This document shows positions 4,675-23,149 of a DNA stretch of 64,000 nucleotides, piece by piece; within the stretch, counting starts at the first letter, position 1, and the number at the start of each line of letters is the position of its first letter. Below the pieces are notes generated by a model. It did no database searches and had not been told where the DNA came from. It worked only from the letters and a program-made list of their open reading frames with translations. The position numbers were made by a program, and so were the translations under genes. Origin of the DNA: Dictyostelium discoideum (Eukaryota); the NCBI GenBank assembly GCA_000004695.1, contig CM000154.2, forward strand, positions 96,001 through 160,000, given 5' to 3'.

Positions 4675-6275
4675 CTACAAACTCATTTGATAGAGCATAT
4701 TTTTTAAATATTCCTTATTGAAACGGTATAAATAAAACATTACACACACACCCATTAATAATAAAATTCCTAATCCAATTAAAAAATAAGGAATTGGATA
4801 ATTTGGTGATGGATAAAAATTACTACCCAAAATTACAGTGAAAAGAATTGCACTAAATATTGGTAAAATCATATGTCTGAAAAGTTGGAAATCTTTCGGA
4901 TGGTAAACTTTAACAAATCTAATTACGGCAATATTTGTAATTATGAATATTAAAATAACAGGGATTGTACTAGTGAAACTAATATAATCATAAACTTCCC
5001 AACTCGATTCTGTATAAATATTTTTAGTTGAACCAACAATAATTGACGACATTAAAATTATAAAACCAGTTAAACTAATGATTGCATTATGTGGAGTATT
5101 AAATTTTTGATTTGTTCTACCAAACCATGAAATAATTCCTTTCTCTTTAGTTTTACCAACTGAATAAATTATTCTAAAAACTATATTAAACCAACTACTG
5201 ATTACACAAAATCCAGAAACAACAGAAGTAATATCAATAATAACAGAATACCAAAATCCAATATATCTCTCTGCATAAACTCCAACTGTAAATTGAGATG
5301 TATCAATTGAAAATATATTTGAAGGTCCAACAGCAACAACCAATGAATACATTGCCAATATAAACCAAGTTGAAGCAAATGCAATTGAACCAAATACTGC
5401 AATTGGTATATTCTTTTTTGGATTTCTAGTTTCTTGACCTAATGTAGCGGCGCCTTCAAATCCAATAAAAATGAATGTGCAATAAACCAGACCAGTGGCA
5501 ATACCTGAAAAACCACCTGAATATTCACCAAACGGTGTGAGTGCTAATGGATAATTACCTTCATCACCACCTTTAATTACAATTGTAAATGATAGTACCA
5601 ACATTACCAAAGTTTCTAAAATCATTGTAATTATACTAGTTTTCAAAACAACATCAATGCCAATATATGCCAACGTTGGAATTATTGTAACAACAATTAT
5701 TAAACTTAATATCCATGGACAATGAAAATCAGAATATCTTGTTATTACATCTGAAAGTGGATTAACAAACATAAACATTGAACCCATCATATTTGCTAAA
5801 TATCCAATCATTAAAATCCAAACACTTAAAAATCCCATTTCATTTCCTAACCCTTTTGTAATATAAACAAAAAATGAAGCACTACTACTAATATACTATT
5901 TTTTTTTCAAAAATTTTATTGTTTTATTATCACTATTATTATTTTAATTTTACAATTTTTAAAAAATAAACATACTTTACCAAATATACTAATTGTATTA
6001 GCAAGTGTTAAACAACATAATGCACCAATAAAAATTGTAAATGGTACACTTGTACCTGCTGATGCTGCAATATTTGGAAAAACAAAAAATGTTGAAGCAC
6101 TCAATCCAATACCACCAACTGATAATGCAATACATTCAATTACACCAATAGTATTTTTTTTTAATCCATTATATAATAAATCATTTTCTTCTTTATTTGA
6201 CGAATTTATACCTTTATTTTCAATTATTACTCCTTCTTTTTGGAAATTTAGTATATTACTATTTTCTATACCCAT
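4675..6275 (-). CDS. APC-superfamily amino-acid permease, tandem paralog 3 (exon 1 5976-6275, exon 2 4675-5895)
   Basis: MGIENSNILNFQKEG...LKKNTIGVIECIALSVGGIGLSASTFFVFPNIAASAGTSVPF...ISIFGK is followed by a GTATGT donor. Acceptor ...aaatag precedes YISSSASFFVYITKGLGNEMGFLSVW. The exon structure is identical to copies 1, 2 and 4. Confidence 0.85.
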
Positions 6276-6524
6276 TTTTCGACAAAAAAAAAAAAATAAA
6301 TAAAAAATAAAATAGTTTACGCACTGTGAACCTTATTTTTATTTATTTTGTTTTTTTTCATATCCTAACTACAAACCCCGTACTCCAATAATAATAATTT
6401 TTTTTAGTATTGTTTATTATAAATTATTTGTTCATTATTTACTTTTTTATTTTATCTGAAAAAAAAAAAAAAAATTAATTAAACGGGTGCCGAAATAATT
6501 TTTTTTTTTTTTCTTTTTGTTTTT

Positions 6525-6585
6525 AGAGATAAAAAATAATTAAAATATATCCAATTATTTATAGTTAACTAATTTAAACCAATTG
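6525..6585. promoter_or_regulatory. Conserved CCAAT-containing upstream block of permease paralog 3
   Basis: agagataaaaaataattaaaatATATCCAATTATTTatagttaactaatttaaaccaattg lies about 250-310 bp 5' of the ATG at 6275. Confidence 0.45.
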
Positions 6586-6941
6586 ATCGATTAATTTTTT
6601 TTTTGTTGATAATTTCCAAATAATTTTTAAGTTTAGAAGCCGAAAAAAATACTTTTTTTTGGGTAATAATAAAATTGGCAAACTGTATTTTAGCTTTTTT
6701 GGTAAAATATTAAATAAAAAATTATAAAAATAATAAAAATACTCTTTTTTTCTACTTTATTTTATAATTTTTTTTTTTTTTTTTTTAATATCTTGTGTTT
6801 GAGAAGTAGATTTATTAAAGTAATTATATACAGTATCTTTTTTTAAGGATTTTTTTTCTAATTTAAATTTTAATTGTAATATACAATAAAATAATAATAA
6901 AAAAAATTTTAAACCTTATATTTTATTAATTTTATCAATAA

Positions 6942-14291: not shown

Positions 14292-14831
14292 TTATTTTAA
14301 ATTTGATAAACTACCAATTAATTTATAATAAATAGTTGTACCAGAGTATTCACCTTGATTTGAAACGTGGGATGCAAAGAAAGGGATTGAACCAACTTCA
14401 ACATACCCAATTGATTTATAAAGAGTACGAGTTACTGGATCAGTTGAACTTGTATCTAAAATTAATAATTCTTTACCAATTGATAATGAATATTTTTCAA
14501 TTTCACTTAATAGCAATTTTGCAATTCCTTTTTTTCTATGAGTTGAATGTACAATTAATTTTTGAATTTCACAACGATGTTTTGCATTTGAATATGTATT
14601 ACTCCATGAACTTTGAATTGTTGCAACAATTGAACCTTCAATTAATGTTACTAATAATATTCTAGATTTACTTTTTAATTCATCATTTACTTTATCCCAA
14701 AATTCAATTGCTTTTTCTCTACTTAATGGAAAATTAAATCCAATTGCTGCTTTATTTTCAACACCATCAATTAAAAGATTAACTAATTGTTCTTTAATAC
14801 TATCATTAATTAATTCAATTGATATAATTTC

Positions 14832-14834
<3 letters not shown>
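14292..14834 (-). CDS. GNAT-family N-acetyltransferase
   Basis: The 180-aa product has a GNAT motif A/B region ...CEIQKLIVHSTHRKKGIAKLLLSEIEKYSLSIGKELLILDTSSTDPVTRTLYKSIGYVEVGSIPFF. It is paralogous to 16586-17185. Confidence 0.75.
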
Positions 14835-14862
<28 letters not shown>

Positions 14863-15161
14863 TTGTTTTTTCGAATTTATAAATTATATTATTACAAGCA
14901 AAAGTGATCGTTTTTAAATACACTCCGAATAAAAAAAAATAAAAATAAAAAAATAAAAAAATAAAAAAAAAAAAAAAAATAAAAAAAAATCTAAAGCGAT
15001 CGTGGTAACCAGTGTTTAAAAAAAAAAAAATAAAAATAATAAAAAAAAAAAAATAAAAAAACTTTTACTAAAAATCCCAATGGGAAAATACCACCTAAAA
15101 ATAAGTTTTTAAAAACTTATTTTTAAAAATAAAAAAATATTTATGTACAAATTTTATTATC

Positions 15162-15191
<30 letters not shown>

Positions 15192-15198
<7 letters not shown>

Positions 15199-16022
15199 GG
15201 TTTAGAACCTAATTGAGGTACATCATCATTTGGATTAAAGTTTTCAATATGAGTGTTTGTAACTTTTGTAATTCTTTTCTTTCTTTCTTTCTTAAGTTTA
15301 GTAGATTTAGTTTGACGAGCAGATTCAACAGATTCTACAACTGATAAACCAGCATCTTTCATTTCTTTTTCTAAATCAGCTTCATTTGGTAATTTAATTG
15401 ATTTCCACATGTCTACCAACTCTGAGGATAATGGAACACGAAGACGTTCATCATTTGGAAAGATGATATCACAAGCACTCTCTGCTGCTTTAATTGCAAA
15501 GATTTGTTTTGTCTCTTTGAGTTTCTTTACATCACTCTCTGCATTGTTGTATGATTCTGCCAATTCTGATACTAATATACCACCTGGATAATTTGGTAAG
15601 AGATCCAAGATATCACGTTGAGTACGTACATTGAATTTTGGTTTGAATGAGAAACGATCATTTCCATGGTCAATGATTTTTTCATTATTTCTTAAAAGTT
15701 CCAAAATTTCAGGTTTATCGTCGATCATGTGATTGGTTGAATGCATGATCTCTTTAGTATCTGCTGGTATACCTTCTAATGTTTTCAAATAGTTTACAAT
15801 ATCATAAACAATTCTATTACTTGGTTTCTCTTTAACCTGTTTATCACGTAATGTATTAGCTGTATAGATTGATGATTGTCTATTTGCTGAACTACTACCA
15901 CCACCACCTGATATCTTTGGTATATATTTGAATGCACTATTTGTTGAACTTGATGGCTTTTTGATACTATTTAAAGTTTCAATTGCCTTCATTTGTGTTT
16001 CTTTAAAACCTGCCATATTCAT
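15192..16022 (-). CDS. gtf2e2: General transcription factor TFIIE beta subunit
   Basis: The 276-aa product matches TFIIE-beta winged-helix and C-terminal regions ([86 protein letters not shown]... and a basic [19 protein letters not shown] tail). These are collinear with human GTF2E2 ([49 protein letters not shown]...). Confidence 0.85.
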
Positions 16023-16585
16023 TTTTTAGTTCTATATATATATATAAATTTTATATAATGATTAATCAATATATAAATAATATTAAAAAAAAATTAAAAA
16101 AATAAAAATAAAAAAAAATGATGTTATAAAATTAAAAAAATAAAAATAAAAAAAAATAAAAAAAAAAGTTTATTTGTTTAATTATTATTTGTTTGTTTGC
16201 TAGACAACACAAATTTTAAAAAGTGAGAAAATTTTAAAATTTTTTTTTTTTACCCTATTTTTTTTTTTTTTTTTTTAATTTTATTTTTATTTTATTTTAT
16301 TTTATTTTTAATTTATTTTTAATTAAAATTTTATTTTTATTTTTTTATTTAAATAAAACTTTTTTCTAAAAAATAAAAAAATAAAAAAATAAAAAAACAA
16401 TTTAGTTATGGTAACGAATTATACTATTATGATTTAATTAATTAATTTATTTTAAATTAATTTTTTTTTTTTTTTCAGAATAAGTTTTTTTTTAAAAAAA
16501 AAAAAAAAACAAAAAAAAAAAAATCGGAAACAATGATTCAAACATAAAGCAAAAGTCAAAATTAAACAATAACACTCACTTAAAA

Positions 16586-17180
16586 ATGAATGATAATACT
16601 AAAGATAATAATAATAATAATAATATAGAATTTAAATTAATTAAATCAATTGAAGGTGATATTAAAAAACAATTGGTAGAATTATTAATTACAGGTGTTA
16701 AAGATGGTGATTTAGGATTCACAAATCCATTAAGTGAATTAGAAGCAGAGAAATATTGGGAAAAGGTAGATGGTGATTTAAAAGTTGAAAAAGATTGTAG
16801 ACTATTATTAATTGCAATTTCAAATAATAACAATAATAATAATAGAATAGCAGGTACAGTTCAATTATCATGGGATACCTATTACAACAATTCTTTCCAC
16901 CGTGCTGAAGTTCAAAAATTAATGGTAAATAAAGAATTTAGGGGTATGGGTATTTCAAAGAAATTAATGTCATCAATTGAATCTCATGCAATCTCAATTA
17001 AAAAGAAACTATTACTGCTCGATACTCGTTCAGATCATCCAATTTCACCATCACTCTATAGATCATTAGGTTACACTGAATTTGGTTCAGTACCTTTCTT
17101 TTCATTCGATTCTGATGGTTATACATCAACAACTTATTTTTATAAAGTAATTGATAAGAATTTATTATCAATTGGTTCAA

Positions 17181-17185
<5 letters not shown>
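16586..17185 (+). CDS. GNAT-family N-acetyltransferase (paralog of 14292-14834)
   Basis: The 199-aa product has the same architecture as its paralog (LIKSIEGDIKKQLVELLITGV...RAEVQKLMVNKEFRGMGISKKLMSSIESHAISIKKKLLLLDTRSDHPISPSLYRSLGYTEFGSVPFF) plus an N-rich insert. Confidence 0.75.
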
Positions 17186-17253
<68 letters not shown>

Positions 17254-17385
17254 TTCCAATCATAAAATAAAATAAAATAAAATAAAATAAAATAAAATAA
17301 AATAAAATAAAATAAAAAAATTTAAAATTGTAATGGACCTTATGATTTTATTGTTGTTGTTGTTGTTGTTGTTGTTGTTTTGTTT
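17184..17385. repeat. Compound microsatellite (AAT)n - (AAAAT)n - (GTT)n
   Basis: About 23 AAT units (17184-17251) are followed by about 11 aaaat units (17265-17322) and about 10 gtt units (17353-17385). Confidence 0.9.
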
Positions 17386-17870
17386 ATTTAAATTCATTGT
17401 ATAAACTTAAATTTGATAAATAATTTCTATAGATTTTATTTGAACTATTTAAATGTGATGTATTTCTTCCAAACTCATAATCTCTATCAGCTAATCTGAG
17501 AGCTTCAAGATATTCATTATTATTAGATATTGGTACTGGAAATGGGAAACCATATTGAAACATTACCAAATTACCTAATAAACGAGACATTCTACAATTA
17601 CCATCTTCAAATGGACGAATACTAACAAGTGCATGAGAAAGCCATGCTGCAATTGCATATGGAGATGGTTTAATTAGAGAATTCCTTAATTGATTATATT
17701 TTCCAACTAATTTCTCCATTGATTCTTTAATTAATGAACTTTAGATAAAAACTTTTTGACCTTCAAAAACTTCATATGTTCTATAAGTAATAGGTGTAGC
17801 GATGATATTTTTCAGTAATATTGAGGCCCATTTCATTATATTGTCTACAGTTAGTGATTGATCTTTTTTT
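17384..17870 (-). pseudogene. Fic/Doc (Fido) domain remnant with a degenerate catalytic motif and an in-frame stop
   Basis: The minus frame reads ...TYRTYEVFEGQKVFI*SSLIKESMEKLVGKYNQLRNSLIKPSPYAIAAWLSHALVSIRPFEDGNCRMSRLLGNLVMFQYGFP.... The Fic signature HPFx[DE]GNGRxxR is present as RPFEDGNCRMSR, with H replaced by R and G replaced by C. An in-frame TAA at 17741-17743 sits 8 codons upstream of the only Met. A further TGA lies near 17860. Confidence 0.55.
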
Positions 17871-18375
17871 CAAATATATCTTAGGTTACATAAAAATGTT
17901 TTAAAAGTATTCTTTTTTTCGGATAATGAGAAGGTTTATAAATCAAATTCATCCTCCAAATCATTTTATGTATTTTTAAACGCTATACTAAATCCATATT
18001 AAGAATAAATAAAATTAAATCATTTTTAAAAAAAATAAGAAATAAAACCAAAATATATTTTTTTTTAAAGTTTTTAATTTTCCTCAACAAACTCCCACTT
18101 TTTTTTTTTAAAAAAACAATTCTTTTTTTTTTCTCATTTTTTTGACACCACTGACTCACATGATGTCAATACACCAAAAATAAATGACTACACTAACACT
18201 CAATATTAATATTAATAATAATAAAAAATCAATTTCACAATTTAAAACTAAAATAAATAAATTTTTTTTATTTTTTTTATTTTTTTTTTTTTAATAATCA
18301 AAATAAAAATATAACAAAGAAACCAATAAAAATAATAATAAAAATAAAAATAATAAAAATAAAATTAAAATTAAA

Positions 18376-20400
18376 ATGGTATCAGATAATAATAAAATTT
18401 TAAACCAATTACCAATTGTTATAATAAAGAAAATATTTAGAGAATTAGAACATGAAAAACCTAAACTCTCAGCTAAAACATGGTGTACTCATATGTTAAT
18501 GCATGGTATTCATCATTGTAATTCCACAAGTGTTAATGTTGTAATGTTATCACTAGTATGTAAAGATTGGGCATATCAAATTATACCAAGAATTGAATTA
18601 CCATGGTTCATTTCAAATGAAAAAGAGTATACATTCTTTAAGAGATGGAATGAATTTGGTATACTTTCAAATGGTATTACCAAATATCCTAAAATTTTAT
18701 TTGATCTTGACAGAGTTGAATTAAATTTTCCAGATGATTCTTTCAAGTATCCAACAATACCAATTTTAGAAAATATTAAATTAATTTCAAATTTTACAAT
18801 TGATGAATTAAATAGAATTCAAGAAAATAATAATAATAATAATAATAATATTGATAATAATATAAAATCATTAAAATCATTAAAAATTGAATTAAATAAT
18901 GATATAACCCAATCAGAATTAAATAAACCAAAAAATCAACAAATTAAAACATTATTAAAAAATAATCAACAATTAGAAACAATTGAATTTAAAGGAATTA
19001 GAGATTTTAATATAAAGATTGATTTTAATTTATTAATTAATGATTTCTTAATGAATTGTAATGATGAAAATAGAATAACAACAATAAAATCATTATCAAT
19101 TTCAAATTGTACATTAATAAATTATTCAATAAATAATAACAATAATAATGATGATATTAATAATAATAATAATAATAATAATCAATTATTATTATTGAAA
19201 TCATTAACAACATTAAAATTAATTGGAGTAGAATTTAAAGAAGATGGTAAAAGTTCATTAAGATTGTTGATTTCAGAATTGGAAAATTTAGAATATTTAA
19301 AATTAATAAATAATGATATTACATTTATTGATTCAATAATTGAAAAACTTTATTTTAATAATAAATTAAAGTGTTTAACTATAAAAGAACCAAAAGTAAT
19401 TCAAAATAATATTAATTGTTTAACAATTCAAACATTAATTCAATATAATACTCAATTGGAGAAAATTTCATTACAATTAAAAAAACTTGGTCAATCATAT
19501 CTTGAAAGTCCATCAATAATTAATTCAAATATAAATTATAAAATTTATACTGAAACTTTGGATTTACAAATTAATGGTAGTGAAAAACTTAAAGTTTTAA
19601 AAATTAATTCAAATTTCAATGTTATAATTAATCATTGTCCTTCATTAGAAAGATTATCAATAATTCAACATAGAGATTCAACATTACCATTCCTTTTAAA
19701 TAATATATCATTACCAACTTCACCATTTAAATCTTTACCAAATTTAAATTCTCTAACTTTTATTGGTGCAATTTTCAATTATTCAACAAAAGAATTCTTT
19801 AATGAATTATTTAATAATAATAATAATAATAATAACAACAATAATAAATTAAAAGAAATTGGTATAATTGATATAATAAATCAAGAAAACTGTTTAAATA
19901 ATTTATTAATATCAAGTTTTAATAATAATAATAATTTACAATATTTAAAAGTAAAAGTTAGTAAAAATATTTACATAAAAGATTTATTGAATTTATTAGA
20001 AAATTTGGTTTTAGAAAATTCACCACATTTAAAATCAGTTGAAATTATTATTTCAAGTGATTCTATTTATAGTAAACAAATTAATAAATGTTCAAATTTA
20101 ATTTTTCTTGAATTATTATCTGTACTTTGCTGCTCATCAAACTCAATGATTAAAAAAAATAATAAGAATTCAAATTTAAAATCAATAATATTAGTAAACA
20201 ATAATTATGTAAAAAGGTGTCTATGTAATTCTAGAAATGGTGCAAATGAAAATTGTACTTCTTTTATTGACTCAACAAATTTAATTACTTCATTAAATTC
20301 TTCTATTAATATTTTCTTACCTCAATGTTTAAAACCATTATTTAAACCCTATATAACCTCAATAAATCACTTAAATAATATCTGTTTTGATAGATGGTGA
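18376..20400 (+). CDS. F-box-like / leucine-rich-repeat-like protein with Asn-rich low-complexity inserts
   Basis: The single 674-aa ORF has an N-terminal LPIVIIKKIFRELEH (F-box-like LPxxIIxKIF) motif, followed by repeated L..L..L.N segments. The Cys-rich C-terminus is ...CLCNSRNGANENCTSF. Confidence 0.6.
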   Translation: MVSDNNKILNQLPIVIIKKIFRELEHEKPKLSAKTWCTHMLMHGIHHCNSTSVNVVMLSLVCKDWAYQIIPRIELPWFISNEKEYTFFKRWNEFGILSNGITKYPKILFDLDRVELNFPDDSFKYPTIPILENIKLISNFTIDELNRIQENNNNNNNNIDNNIKSLKSLKIELNNDITQSELNKPKNQQIKTLLKNNQQLETIEFKGIRDFNIKIDFNLLINDFLMNCNDENRITTIKSLSISNCTLINYSINNNNNNDDINNNNNNNNQLLLLKSLTTLKLIGVEFKEDGKSSLRLLISELENLEYLKLINNDITFIDSIIEKLYFNNKLKCLTIKEPKVIQNNINCLTIQTLIQYNTQLEKISLQLKKLGQSYLESPSIINSNINYKIYTETLDLQINGSEKLKVLKINSNFNVIINHCPSLERLSIIQHRDSTLPFLLNNISLPTSPFKSLPNLNSLTFIGAIFNYSTKEFFNELFNNNNNNNNNNNKLKEIGIIDIINQENCLNNLLISSFNNNNNLQYLKVKVSKNIYIKDLLNLLENLVLENSPHLKSVEIIISSDSIYSKQINKCSNLIFLELLSVLCCSSNSMIKKNNKNSNLKSIILVNNNYVKRCLCNSRNGANENCTSFIDSTNLITSLNSSINIFLPQCLKPLFKPYITSINHLNNICFDRW

Positions 20401-20787
20401 TTAAAAAAAAAATAAAAAATTTAATAATAAAAAAAAGATTTTCAAACTAAAGAGGAAAATAGATTTTCTTTTTTTGTTTTTTTTTTTATTGGACTATATC
20501 CTTCTTTTTAATTCTATTACCACAAACAACATTTTTACGCATACTGGGGAATAACCATCAATAAATTTATTTGATTTAGAAATCAATACCGTATAATAAA
20601 TTTTTTTGATTATTTGCAATTAATAAATAATAATTTGTACTTTTAACAATTGAAACTATAAAACTTTCTTTTTAATTGATTTAACTATTTAACTATTTAA
20701 CTATTTAACTATAAAAATTCATCTTTGAAACCAATTAACTACTTTTTCTAAGATTACCATCTTCATCAACTCTAACATCTTTTTTTA

Positions 20788-21348
20788 CTAATATTTGTTT
20801 ATCTTTTTTGATTGGTTGACTCTTTTCTTTGATTTTTCATTTTCATCTTTATCTTCATCATCTGCTGTTGATAATCCAGTTGGTGCTGCCCTTTTTTTAT
20901 TTACAATTGTTGGTTCAGTGGCAGTGGTAGTGGTTGCTTTTTTTGGTCTTCCTCTTGATCTTGGTGGTGCAACTTTTTCTTTTTCTTTTTCTTCTTCTTC
21001 TTTTTCTTCTTCTTTTTCCTCTTCTTCTTGAGAGTGTGATATTTGTGTTTTAAATGTATTGTATAAATTAAAATTTGTTTCTTTTTCTTTTTCTTTTTCT
21101 TTTTCTTTTTCTTTTTCTTTTTCTTTTTCTTTTTCTTTTTCTTTTTCTTTTTCTTTTTCTTTTTCTTCTTTTTCTTTTTCTATCTCTTCTTTTTCTTTCT
21201 CATATCTTTTAATATTTTCAATTCTTTTAATTACCTTTTTGTACATTTTTTTTGAAGCTTCTATTTTATCTTCAATTGGTTCGACCATGCCTAAATCAAA
21301 AAACATTAATTTCTCTTCATGTAACATTAATTTCTCTTCATGTAACAT
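20788..21348 (-). CDS. Acidic KEKE-repeat protein with an AT-hook (PRSRGRPKK)
   Basis: The ORF encodes (EKEK)n from a (ctttt/cttttt)n array, then an AT-hook GRP core and a basic tail. Its 5' end is a 22-bp x3 tandem repeat giving MLHEEKLMLHEEKL. The true start is possibly MFFDLGMVEP... or MVEPIEDK. Confidence 0.4.
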   Translation of the reverse strand: MLHEEKLMLHEEKLMFFDLGMVEPIEDKIEASKKMYKKVIKRIENIKRYEKEKEEIEKEKEEKEKEKEKEKEKEKEKEKEKEKEKEKEKETNFNLYNTFKTQISHSQEEEEKEEEKEEEEKEKEKVAPPRSRGRPKKATTTTATEPTIVNKKRAAPTGLSTADDEDKDENEKSKKRVNQSKKINKY

Positions 21349-21360
21349 TAATTTCTATAT
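21300..21360. repeat. 22-bp tandem repeat (catgtaacattaatttctcttc) x ~2.7
   Basis: Direct repeat copies are visible at the 5' end of ORF 20788-21348, immediately 3' of the kinase-like reading frame. Confidence 0.8.
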
Positions 21361-22631
21361 ATTTGCCAATATGTCTTAAAGATAAATCCAAATGTATATT
21401 TTGATTCTGAAAATTGATCACATGCATTTGATAATTTATTAACAAAAACATCTTTATTATAATCGATAGAGGTAATAGGTTTAAAAAATGGCATCAATAA
21501 ACAATACTCATTATTAAACATTGAAACCAATGTTTTGATACCCCAAATATTCAACCAATTTGTTTGTTCTGTGATAGCACTATCTCGACTTTTATTTTTA
21601 AAAAACTTGATTACAAATGCTTTAGCTTGATTGTTTATTGCTAACCATGCTTTACCCTCAGCACCTGAACCCAAGAGTGAAATTAAATAAATTACTTGGT
21701 AGTCTTCTTCTTTATTGAATTCCTCAATTGTATAAACTATTTAAATGGTATCGCTACCTTTGTCTTTGCATTCATCGCTAAAACTAATTTTACCTAAAGT
21801 TACCCATTTAAAAGAATTTTGATCAAATTTCATAAATGTATGATTTAATAGTAATCTTTGATCAACGTGAGAAAGCATCATCTTTTTAACTACAGTGCAA
21901 AGTGATTTAACCAATACGGATTCACCATTTTCAAAATCATTATATTTTATTACTGGTGATACGTATAAGAATCTCTCAACATCTTGAGTATGAGCATTTT
22001 GAAGTGAAACTAATAATTTTGGATCCAATTGAAGTTTTTCTGGAACTTGAATTTGGTGTAGTAGTATATTTAATTTTGGTATATTCTCCTCTGAAAATAG
22101 TTCAACATTTTCTTCTGAAGCGAGTTTGTTATCTTTCAACAATACGATTCTAGTTATATTGTAGCAGCTTAAAATACCAAAAAGATTTGTTACACCGTGT
22201 ATATTTTAGAGTAAGACCATATAATCAAAGAGTTGATGATATGATTTATTTGAAAAATTATCACATGGTCTTTTCAGTTTTATTACTCCTTTCGGAATAC
22301 CATGGTGAGTGATAATCAAAATATCTTCTTTAAAACTTGTAATTGAAATTTCAGTTTTAATTTTAAGATCTTCTTCAAGACCACATAATGCCAAGATATC
22401 TTTTATCAGCAAATTAAAACAAAGCAAAACATTGGCCCCACTTGAAATTTCATCTTGTTTTGAATCCATGCAATTCCATAATTTAGAGATTTTATAATCT
22501 AAATTGCTACAATATGGACTATATAAATTTTTAAATTCACTTTCTTGAATGTTACATTTTGTATGTTTGCTTGAAGCTGATCTATATGCTGATTTACTTA
22601 TTGAAAAGTTTGGTACACCTTTGGTTTTCAT
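21351..22631 (-). pseudogene. Protein-kinase-like reading frame interrupted by two in-frame TAA stops
   Basis: Track ORFs 22206-22631, 21741-22142 and 21348-21674 are all in the same minus frame. The 21- and 22-codon gaps between them are stop-free apart from single TAA codons at 22206-22208 and 21741-21743. The C-terminal segment encodes a kinase subdomain I/II: DYQVIYLISLLGSGAEGKAWLAINNQAKAFVIKFFK (Gly loop plus VAIK-like), then EQTNWLNIWG and LLMPFF (hinge-like). No intron of compatible length or phase explains the stops. Confidence 0.5.
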
Positions 22632-22636
22632 ATCTA

Positions 22637-22640
22637 ATAA

Positions 22641-22723
<83 letters not shown>

Positions 22724-22732
22724 ATATACAAC

Positions 22733-22772
<40 letters not shown>

Positions 22773-22782
22773 TAGTTAGTAT
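22637..22782. repeat. (AAAT)n then (AAT)n microsatellites
   Basis: (aaataaat)n spans 22637-22726 and (aat)n spans 22737-22782. Confidence 0.9.
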
Positions 22783-23149
22783 TAGTTAAAAATTATATTA
22801 ATAATTGACATAAATTTAATATAACCAACTTTCAATAAAACAACAACCGATTCCAATTGATAAAGTTCAAGTTTACCACGAGCCAATTTAAGTTGAACAT
22901 AAGGTTTTATTTTCTTTTCATATTTCTTTTTATCTTCATCTGTGGCATTCTTTAATTTTTCTGAATATTTACTAATTATTTCTTCAATATCTTTATTGTT
23001 CATTTTTAATTTAAACTACATAATATTATATTATTGCATTGAGCAACTGAATAATAAAATTAAAAAAAAAAAACTTTTAAAAAAAAAGTTTTAAAAAAAA
23101 ATATGGCGCCAGATTTCAGAAAACTCAATGACTAAAAATAAAAAATAAT

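Follow-up and report, generated by a model that had tools for sequence, protein, structure and literature searches.

Probable remnant of a decayed Fic gene at the annotated Dictyostelium discoideum AX4 locus DDB_G0287311

The stretch of DNA analysed here (the window; 64,000 nt) is AT-rich, with ~16-35% GC per kb, and the genes it contains match Dictyostelium discoideum AX4. DNA alignments to three syntenic loci (L001, L002 and L003), together with three-frame translation, delimit the whole recognisable remnant of a Fic gene at 17384..17967 on the minus strand. This interval equates to codons ~70-269 of the L001 orthologue, and the ancestral Fic reading frame crosses all three frames within it. 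At ~23% GC, the composition of the remnant is typical of its host. It is flanked by a GNAT gene (16586..17185, +) and a gene encoding a 674-aa protein (18376..20400, +), the position given in an earlier note on this DNA. A tblastn search of the fragment against the window found no second Fic copy, nor were any tRNA or Rfam features found in the window.

Read on the minus strand, 17869..17384 translates as ...YRTYEVFEGQKVFI*SSLIKESMEK...RPFEDGNCR.... The frame-1 stretch, KKDQSLTVDNIMKWASILLKNIIATPITYRTYEVFEGQKVFI (17744..17869, -), was aligned to FIC-1 and FICD and covers core helices of the Fic domain as well as the flap region with its beta-hairpin; its hairpin matches the position of the hairpin in an AF2 model of the Dictyostelium citrinum orthologue. 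Next comes an in-frame TAA at 17743..17741 (-), with a Met codon (17719..17717) as the eighth codon past it. This ATG opens a residual 111-codon ORF (17384..17719, -; stop at 17386..17384) that was taken from the ORF list and is 100% identical to P0002, the protein annotated as DDB_G0287311 (Fido domain-containing protein). The same ORF is carried identically as a gene in a second assembly. Translation and orthologue alignment place the degenerate Fic motif RPFEDGNCR at 17591..17617 (-), with the catalytic His changed to Arg (CGT) and the second Gly changed to Cys (TGT). Both the TAA and the altered motif had been reported in the earlier note, and both were found exactly where it had put them. 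Beyond that description, homology continues to ~17967 in two further frames, and the copy carries a second TAA (17883..17881), two frameshifts and deletions of ~615 bp and 15 nt. The catalytic motif of Fic proteins is defined as HxFx(D/E)GN(G/K)R (PMC12409994), a pattern that RPFEDGNCR fails, and an uninterrupted CDS across the Fic core (helices, flap and motif) is absent from the window copy.

Translated through its stop, the remnant scores 39.8 bits (E 8.3e-10) against the Pfam Fic profile PF02661, whose gathering cut-off is 24 bits; a single alignment spans the stop codon and reaches from profile position 2 to 92 of 93. The 111-aa ORF by itself scores 31.4 bits, also over the cut-off. The HMM miss that the earlier note had named as fatal to its domain call was thus not seen, and the predicted assignment of the remnant to the Fic domain is far beyond chance. 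Its top sequence matches among solved structures are Caenorhabditis elegans FIC-1 (E 1e-9), Bacteroides BT_2513 and human FICD. NCBIfam gave sub-threshold partial matches alone (XopAC and mobile mystery protein B), owing to the common Fic motif region. The AX4 remnant is without approximately half of the Fic domain; the Fic fold was confirmed for the intact D. citrinum orthologue. As a proxy for expression, TFIIE-beta was present on six transcript-sized Logan contigs and the Fic remnant on none; the control neighbour GNAT was likewise on none, so that the contigs do not discriminate. In the literature library that was searched, DDB_G0287311 and the second AX4 Fic locus, DDB_G0283145, are mentioned nowhere; the publications listed there that combine Dictyostelium with Fic or AMPylation concern bacterial pathogens and effectors, mostly Legionella, and no endogenous Dictyostelium Fic protein.

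A protein search identified relatives in two genomes labelled D. discoideum, namely a protein of 269 aa in GCA_054859355.1 (P0001, locus L001) and a 238-aa spliced model in GCA_054859385.1 (P0003, locus L002), as well as a protein of 274 aa in D. citrinum (P0004, locus L003). Two others, from D. cf. discoideum (P0005, 210 aa) and Tieghemostelium lacteum (P0006, 207 aa), lie in other genomic contexts. The gene order 674/675-aa gene, Fic, GNAT, TFIIE-beta, GNAT is the same in the window and at L001, L002 and L003, and therefore these three loci are positional orthologues of the window Fic locus. When the discoideum-clade genomes in the collection were probed via the invariant TFIIE-beta, the same three assemblies only were recovered. 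The assemblies belong to a long-read set of Dictyostelium genomes from 2025 that includes AX2-214 and wild isolates from both the discoideum clade and the citrinum clade, and some of the wild discoideum-clade isolates are described as possible cryptic species (PMC12745789).

The D. citrinum orthologue is an open, single-exon frame of 274 codons that reads HPFSDGNGR at the equivalent position. This answers the call in the earlier note for an orthologous locus in a related dictyostelid, with the same gene order and an intact gene. The form HPFxDGNGR is intact in D. citrinum, T. lacteum, D. cf. discoideum and the AX4 paralogue DDB_G0283145.

Relative to the collinear single-exon orthologues, we identified eight lesions in the window copy. 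The largest is a deletion of ~615 bp, with the junction sequence AAATACATAAAATGATTTGGAGG at 17953..17975 (-; junction ~17967-17960), which was mapped by blastn and junction alignments. Window 23073..17960 corresponds to L001 414..5576 and window 17980..17294 to L001 6201..6880, and the deleted segment is L001 ~5599..6213. This deletion took away the promoter region and the ATG as well as codons 1 to ~70, among which lies the motif of the inhibitory helix (the orthologue has SNEIED here). AAAA.GAT microhomology is present at each of the L001 breakpoints. Downstream, alignment to L001 places a 2-nt deletion at 17936..17950 (-; ~17942) that shifts the frame at orthologue codon 79, where AX4 has GAATTTGAT--TTATAAACC and L001 has GAGTTTGATGTATTTAAACA. 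The first nonsense codon follows at 17881..17883 (-), where AAA (Lys, codon 99) in L001, L002 and D. citrinum has become TAA. At codon 103 (17864..17871, -) a run of A8 in the three orthologues is reduced to A7, and this 1-nt deletion shifts the reading into the frame that holds the frame-1 stretch. The second nonsense codon (17741..17743, -) is a change of TCA (Ser, codon 146), as found in L001, L002 and D. citrinum, to TAA. Within the motif, His188Arg (CAT to CGT; 17615..17617, -) is common to L001 and L002, whilst Gly195Cys (GGT to TGT; 17594..17596, -) is private to the AX4 lineage. Lastly, a 15-nt in-frame deletion at 17446..17463 (-; ~17455), between ATTTA direct repeats and within the annotated ORF, spans orthologue codons 242-247 and removes five residues, turning TSHLALLYLN of L001 into TSHLN.

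One of the two frameshifts falls in a homopolymer (A7 versus A8), a classic site of sequencing error, and it might be argued that the gene is intact and that its stops and frameshifts reflect errors of sequencing or assembly, a hidden intron, read-through or programmed frameshifting. We regard this as scarcely credible. The sequence of window 17990..17384 recurs without a single difference in GCA_054883475.1, a chromosome-level assembly made independently; over 6.3 kb this assembly differs from the window by three repeat-length indels and is otherwise identical. Since that assembly holds the region exactly, the lesions are real and sequencing error was rejected. Rescue by an intron was also rejected, because each orthologue is a single exon that stays collinear across the two stop sites, such that no intron can restore the frame. 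Moreover, there are at least eight separate lesions, among them the 615-bp loss of the start codon, and the catalytic His is gone whatever the frame.

The orthologues in the two genomes labelled D. discoideum are altered as well. L001 retains an open frame of 269 codons and reads RPFEHANGR, with Asp to His and Gly to Ala in addition to His to Arg. L002 combines His to Arg with Gln163 to TAA, a 10-nt deletion within the motif and a 1-nt insertion, lesions that are bridged in the annotation by a spliced gene model. As His to Arg is common to the window, L001 and L002, this change is older than their split. Independent disabling mutations in sister lineages are a classic sign that function had already been lost.

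We then compared substitution in the Fic copies with that in four neighbouring genes, using dN/dS by the method of Nei and Gojobori. Fic dN/dS is 0.81-0.87 between AX4 and L001, 0.54-0.71 between AX4 and L002 and 0.34-0.85 between L001 and L002, versus 0.00-0.24 in the four flanking genes, whose dS equals that of the Fic remnant (flanking-gene dS is 0.06-0.15 between the window and L001 or L002, and ~0.3 to D. citrinum). Counts of nonsynonymous and synonymous changes differ between Fic and the flanks (Fisher P = 3e-7 pooled; P = 2e-11 for the three nearest genes) and do not differ between Fic and the neutral site ratio (P = 0.57). On the AX4 branch, polarised by D. citrinum, there are 13 nonsynonymous changes, two of them nonsense, against 3 synonymous. 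Approximately 6.6-8.8% of random substitutions in this AT-rich Fic CDS create a stop, so that under neutrality a CDS of full length would gain 1.6-3.5 stops per branch; the two observed in AX4 are consistent with this. The neutral probability that the L001 frame is free of stops is ~0.03-0.2. A relative-rate test of the discoideum lineage against D. citrinum showed no significant acceleration, and Fic dN/dS towards D. citrinum is likewise elevated (0.62-0.76); because of these two results, the syntenic copy may already have been fast-evolving or weakly constrained prior to the loss of the His. An intact orthologue bearing identical changes under purifying selection, which in the earlier note would have spoken for a functional pseudo-Fic, was not what we found: the RPFEHANGR of L001 differs from the AX4 motif, and dN/dS of 0.5-0.9 is neutral-like.

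These values also bear on the 111-aa ORF. Were it a functional, non-catalytic mini-protein derived from Fic and served by a new promoter, it could for instance bind the former substrate or modulate DDB_G0283145. In favour of this, the frame is open, two assemblies annotate it and it exceeds the Pfam cut-off on its own, and purifying selection on a His-less Fic of Polysphondylium violaceum (see below) implies that non-catalytic roles may exist. Against this, dN/dS over codons 104-269 is 0.54-0.81, AX4 has gained Gly to Cys in the motif and Phe to Leu at a residue invariant among intact homologues, and the 15-nt deletion takes an invariant Leu and Ala out of the ORF. Moreover, the ORF is without the flap, the core helices alpha1-alpha2 and any ancestral promoter, and the syntenic allele at L002 has a stop and the 10-nt deletion in the equivalent region. 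We therefore consider a functional mini-protein very unlikely.

In a neighbour-joining tree the window remnant groups with L001 (100%) and then with D. citrinum (82%); the sister of this clade is DDB_G0283145 with the D. cf. discoideum protein (76%), and P. violaceum and a relative from a metagenome form a separate pair. The members of this pair have full-length frames reading NPFSDGNGR and QPFSDGNGR, respectively, with an omega of 0.11 between them. Outside the dictyostelids, prokaryotes supply most of the nearest Fic relatives in the databases and Willaertia one, and these score at most 105 bits versus >190 bits within the group. This gap could be taken to indicate that the fragment is bacterial Fic DNA, acquired by recent horizontal transfer or present as contamination. 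Such an origin is most improbable given the host-typical base composition, the positional orthologues with the same flanks in three other Dictyostelium genomes and the presence of family members from T. lacteum and P. violaceum in one clade. The synonymous divergence of the remnant is likewise that of its neighbours.

Across the family the catalytic His has been replaced three times: the discoideum clade has Arg, P. violaceum has Asn and the metagenome relative has Gln. Strong purifying selection acts on the last two versions. A His-less Fic is thus kept by selection in the P. violaceum lineage, and loss of the His alone is therefore no proof of loss of function in the dictyostelid Fic family. 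On one reading, the long-form dictyostelid Fic may not need its catalytic His, in which case the His to Arg allele would be a functional, non-catalytic pseudo-enzyme and the loss in AX4 a recent event specific to the strain or lineage, not the last stage of a gene long dead. We judge this unlikely. If it were true, wild isolates like that of L001, with an open frame of 269 codons, may still have a functional non-catalytic Fic. The features of a pseudo-enzyme, that is a full-length ORF under purifying selection and without catalytic residues, were found in the P. violaceum and metagenome pair and not in the AX4 copy.

Taken together, 17384..17967 (-) is very probably a non-processed pseudogene, the decayed positional orthologue of a single-exon Fic gene of ~270 aa that is intact in D. 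citrinum. The marks of this class are positional orthology, disabling lesions and a neutral pattern of substitution (omega ~0.8 versus at most 0.24 in the flanks), and all were observed. The earlier note had offered two descriptions of the locus; that of a decaying Fic gene is borne out by synteny, lesions and neutral dN/dS, whereas that of an inactive pseudo-enzyme fragment does not suit a copy that is truncated, interrupted and neutrally evolving. The AX4 remnant most likely yields no functional product, and DDB_G0287311 cannot be an AMPylase because the flap, two of the core helices and the catalytic His are all missing from it. Judged by its sequence, the AX4 locus is ordinary gene decay.

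We propose the following course of events. The ancestor would have been a FICD-like class II Fic enzyme with an inhibitory helix of the (S/T)xxxE(G/N) type, a beta-hairpin flap and an HPFxDGNGR loop, and with no TPR or transmembrane segment; from what is known of the family, its activity was presumably the AMPylation of a hydroxyl on some target. The catalytic His would have changed to Arg (CAT to CGT) in the ancestor of the discoideum clade, after which the gene would have evolved neutrally and been broken independently in each lineage. The AX4 lineage would then have lost the promoter, start codon and inhibitory helix through the ~615-bp microhomology-flanked deletion, and would further have gained two frameshifts, two TAA codons, Gly to Cys in the anion-hole GNGR and the 15-nt deletion. 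The 111-codon ORF of DDB_G0287311 would be the stretch that decay has by chance left open.

The other Fic gene of this organism, with which the earlier note had suggested a comparison, has an intact motif. DDB_G0283145 is annotated at 143 aa, reads HPFIDGNGR and is 56% identical to the D. citrinum orthologue; like DDB_G0287311, it is annotated merely as a short fragment. Its region was studied through the cluster member of an AX2-like assembly. Upstream of DDB_G0283145 this assembly has an ORF, MFKEPNNKDKTSEIECKIKENESSFK...VYQSNKIENINH..., that contains a canonical SxxxEN inhibitory motif, and a 2-nt deletion relative to a further locus (L004) splits this inhibitory-helix N-terminus from the core frame. 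At L004 the N-terminal region has a TAG and a 4-nt deletion of its own, and the gene begins at an internal Met. The core of DDB_G0283145 is under purifying selection, with an omega of 0.25.

The decay of DDB_G0287311, together with the frameshift at DDB_G0283145, suggests that the laboratory D. discoideum lineage may be without any full-length Fic protein, whilst close relatives such as D. citrinum have one. Such a Fic-less state would be relevant to searches for endogenous AMPylation in D. discoideum. The chief value of this work lies in a correction of annotation, in that DDB_G0287311, listed in UniProt and NCBI as "Fido domain-containing protein", would be the residual ORF of a pseudogene and should not be counted as a Fic enzyme in catalogues of eukaryotic AMPylases. 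The same caution applies where D. discoideum serves as a host model for Fic-type bacterial effectors. More interesting than the AX4 locus are the patterns at the level of the family and outside the window, where the catalytic His has repeatedly been lost, and the inhibitory helix repeatedly lost or uncoupled, which makes a small, testable evolutionary story.

Lastly, we compared the intact dictyostelid proteins with known Fic systems. Modelled with AF2, the D. citrinum orthologue (pLDDT 86.3, pTM 0.88) has no TPR array, and Foldseek matches it best to human FICD, BT_2513 and C. elegans FIC-1. In this model the annotated 111-aa ORF starts within the helix next after the flap hairpin. A profile built from the family plus its closest relatives matches FICD with E 4e-60 from the inhibitory-helix motif through the C-terminus. 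The alignment starts with YHTVAIEGNTLTL of FICD against vYnsnkiEgntltl of the profile, and the family consensus SNxIEG aligns to TVAIEG of FICD. At this position L001 and L002 have SNEIED, D. citrinum has SNNIKI, P. violaceum has SNRLSK and the ORF upstream of DDB_G0283145 has SNKIEN. What defines class II Fic proteins is an inhibitory motif, (S/T)xxxE(G/N), on the N-terminal side of the core (PMC12409994); in the window copy the region is deleted. The motif His serves as base in catalysis, and the inhibitory Glu forms a pair with the Arg of the motif (PMC12409994); given these established roles the ancestral protein was most likely a regulated AMPylase.

The closest matches in sequence and fold are thus FICD/HYPE of humans and FIC-1 of C. 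elegans, the metazoan class II AMPylase/deAMPylase of BiP. As in FICD, the alignment runs from an inhibitory helix (SNxIE[G/N/D]) through the flap and the HPFxDGNGR loop to the C-terminal helices, and the intact dictyostelid members retain all motif residues. FICD/HYPE orthologues carry a transmembrane anchor and a TPR domain ahead of the Fic domain (PMC12409994). Unlike these, the dictyostelid proteins have neither, being 207-274 aa long with PF02661 as the only precomputed Pfam domain; identity is ~20% and orthology to FICD is putative. The window copy differs further in having no start, two stops, two frameshifts and Arg for His. Size and single-domain layout are similar to those of BT_2513 (PDB 3cuc) and other stand-alone class II Fic proteins of bacteria and archaea. 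BT_2513 is among the top matches by Foldseek and HMM, and the alignment consensus has an N-terminal inhibitory helix of the SxxxEG type, but the dictyostelid clade stands well apart from such prokaryotic proteins by the bit scores given above. Some Bartonella Bep Fic domains and AvrB also adopt the Fic fold while lacking the canonical catalytic His or motif. These are full-length, expressed effectors, unlike the truncated and interrupted window locus, and the His-less P. violaceum protein is their better analogue. The window locus itself resembles ordinary non-processed (unitary-type) pseudogenes in its conserved synteny, multiple disabling lesions, omega of ~1 and independent, lineage-specific lesions, the sole oddity being that its remnant ORF is listed as protein-coding in the reference annotation.

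Both deletions carried by the Fic pseudogene of the AX4 lineage are bounded by short direct repeats in the undeleted orthologue. At the breakpoints of the ~615-bp deletion (window 17953..17975) these take the form AAAA.GAT, while ATTTA repeats bound the 15-nt deletion (window 17446..17463). The repeats at both sets of breakpoints therefore suggest that microhomology-mediated deletion or replication slippage produced the two losses. Repeats of two kinds lie directly 3′ of the pseudogene stop (window 17181..17315 and 17351..17384): an array of (AAT)n/(AAAAT)n and a run of (TTG)n. The latter reads as (CAA)n on the gene strand, varies in length among isolates and is nearly missing from the syntenic locus of GCA_054859355.1. 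In the same neighbourhood, the TFIIE-beta gene (window 15192..16022, reverse strand) sits between two GNAT acetyltransferase paralogues (window 14292..14834, reverse strand, and 16586..17185, forward strand), an arrangement conserved in 4/4 genomes; the GNAT copy of 199 aa in the window is 191 aa in both GCA_054859355.1 and GCA_054859385.1.

These two assemblies, both labelled D. discoideum, differ from the window by ~8-13% over the whole loci (window 14292..20400), with dS of 0.06-0.15 for the conserved flanking genes, which is far above the usual within-species level. Wild isolates of the discoideum clade, some of them described as possible cryptic species, have been reported (PMC12745789), and the observed divergence fits with such isolates.

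The window's TFIIE-beta protein was matched on six transcript-sized contigs of ~940 nt each (L013-L018) in the Logan collection, which holds assemblies of public sequencing runs; Dictyostelium transcript-like assemblies are therefore present in this collection. Neither the Fic remnant nor the adjoining GNAT gene had a match among the transcript-like contigs and, as the GNAT gene served as the control, this search is uninformative on expression of the remnant.

The AX4/AX2 lineage has a second Fic locus, DDB_G0283145 (4667..5438 of the AX2-like locus L009, GCA_054883475.1 CM142510.1), which retains HPFIDGNGR; an omega of 0.25 indicates purifying selection on its core. The canonical inhibitory-helix motif SNKIEN is carried by an upstream ORF, split from the core by a 2-nt deletion near L009 ~4905. 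At the D. cf. discoideum counterpart (L004 ~5850..6633), a TAG and a 4-nt deletion lie in the corresponding N-terminal region, and an internal Met serves as the start of the gene. The inhibitory helix has thus been uncoupled from the catalytic core twice, independently. A full-length Fic protein may be absent from the laboratory D. discoideum lineage.

Long-form family members were found in P. violaceum (CYY_007024, L007 484..1302) and JGI metagenome 3300028160 (L008 224..1039). The catalytic His is substituted in both (NPFSDGNGR and QPFSDGNGR, respectively), and the inhibitory Glu is likewise lost (SNRLSK and SNRASK). Despite these losses, dN/dS between the full-length genes is ~0.11, making their products candidates for a natural Fic pseudo-enzyme of an amoeba. 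The intact syntenic orthologue of the window's remnant in D. citrinum, ACTFIU_007183 (L003 6001..6825), is evolving fast (dN/dS ~0.7 against the GCA_054859355.1 locus). It has the catalytic His and carries Lys at the inhibitory Glu position (SNNIKI); in FICD-type enzymes, loss of this Glu is activating.
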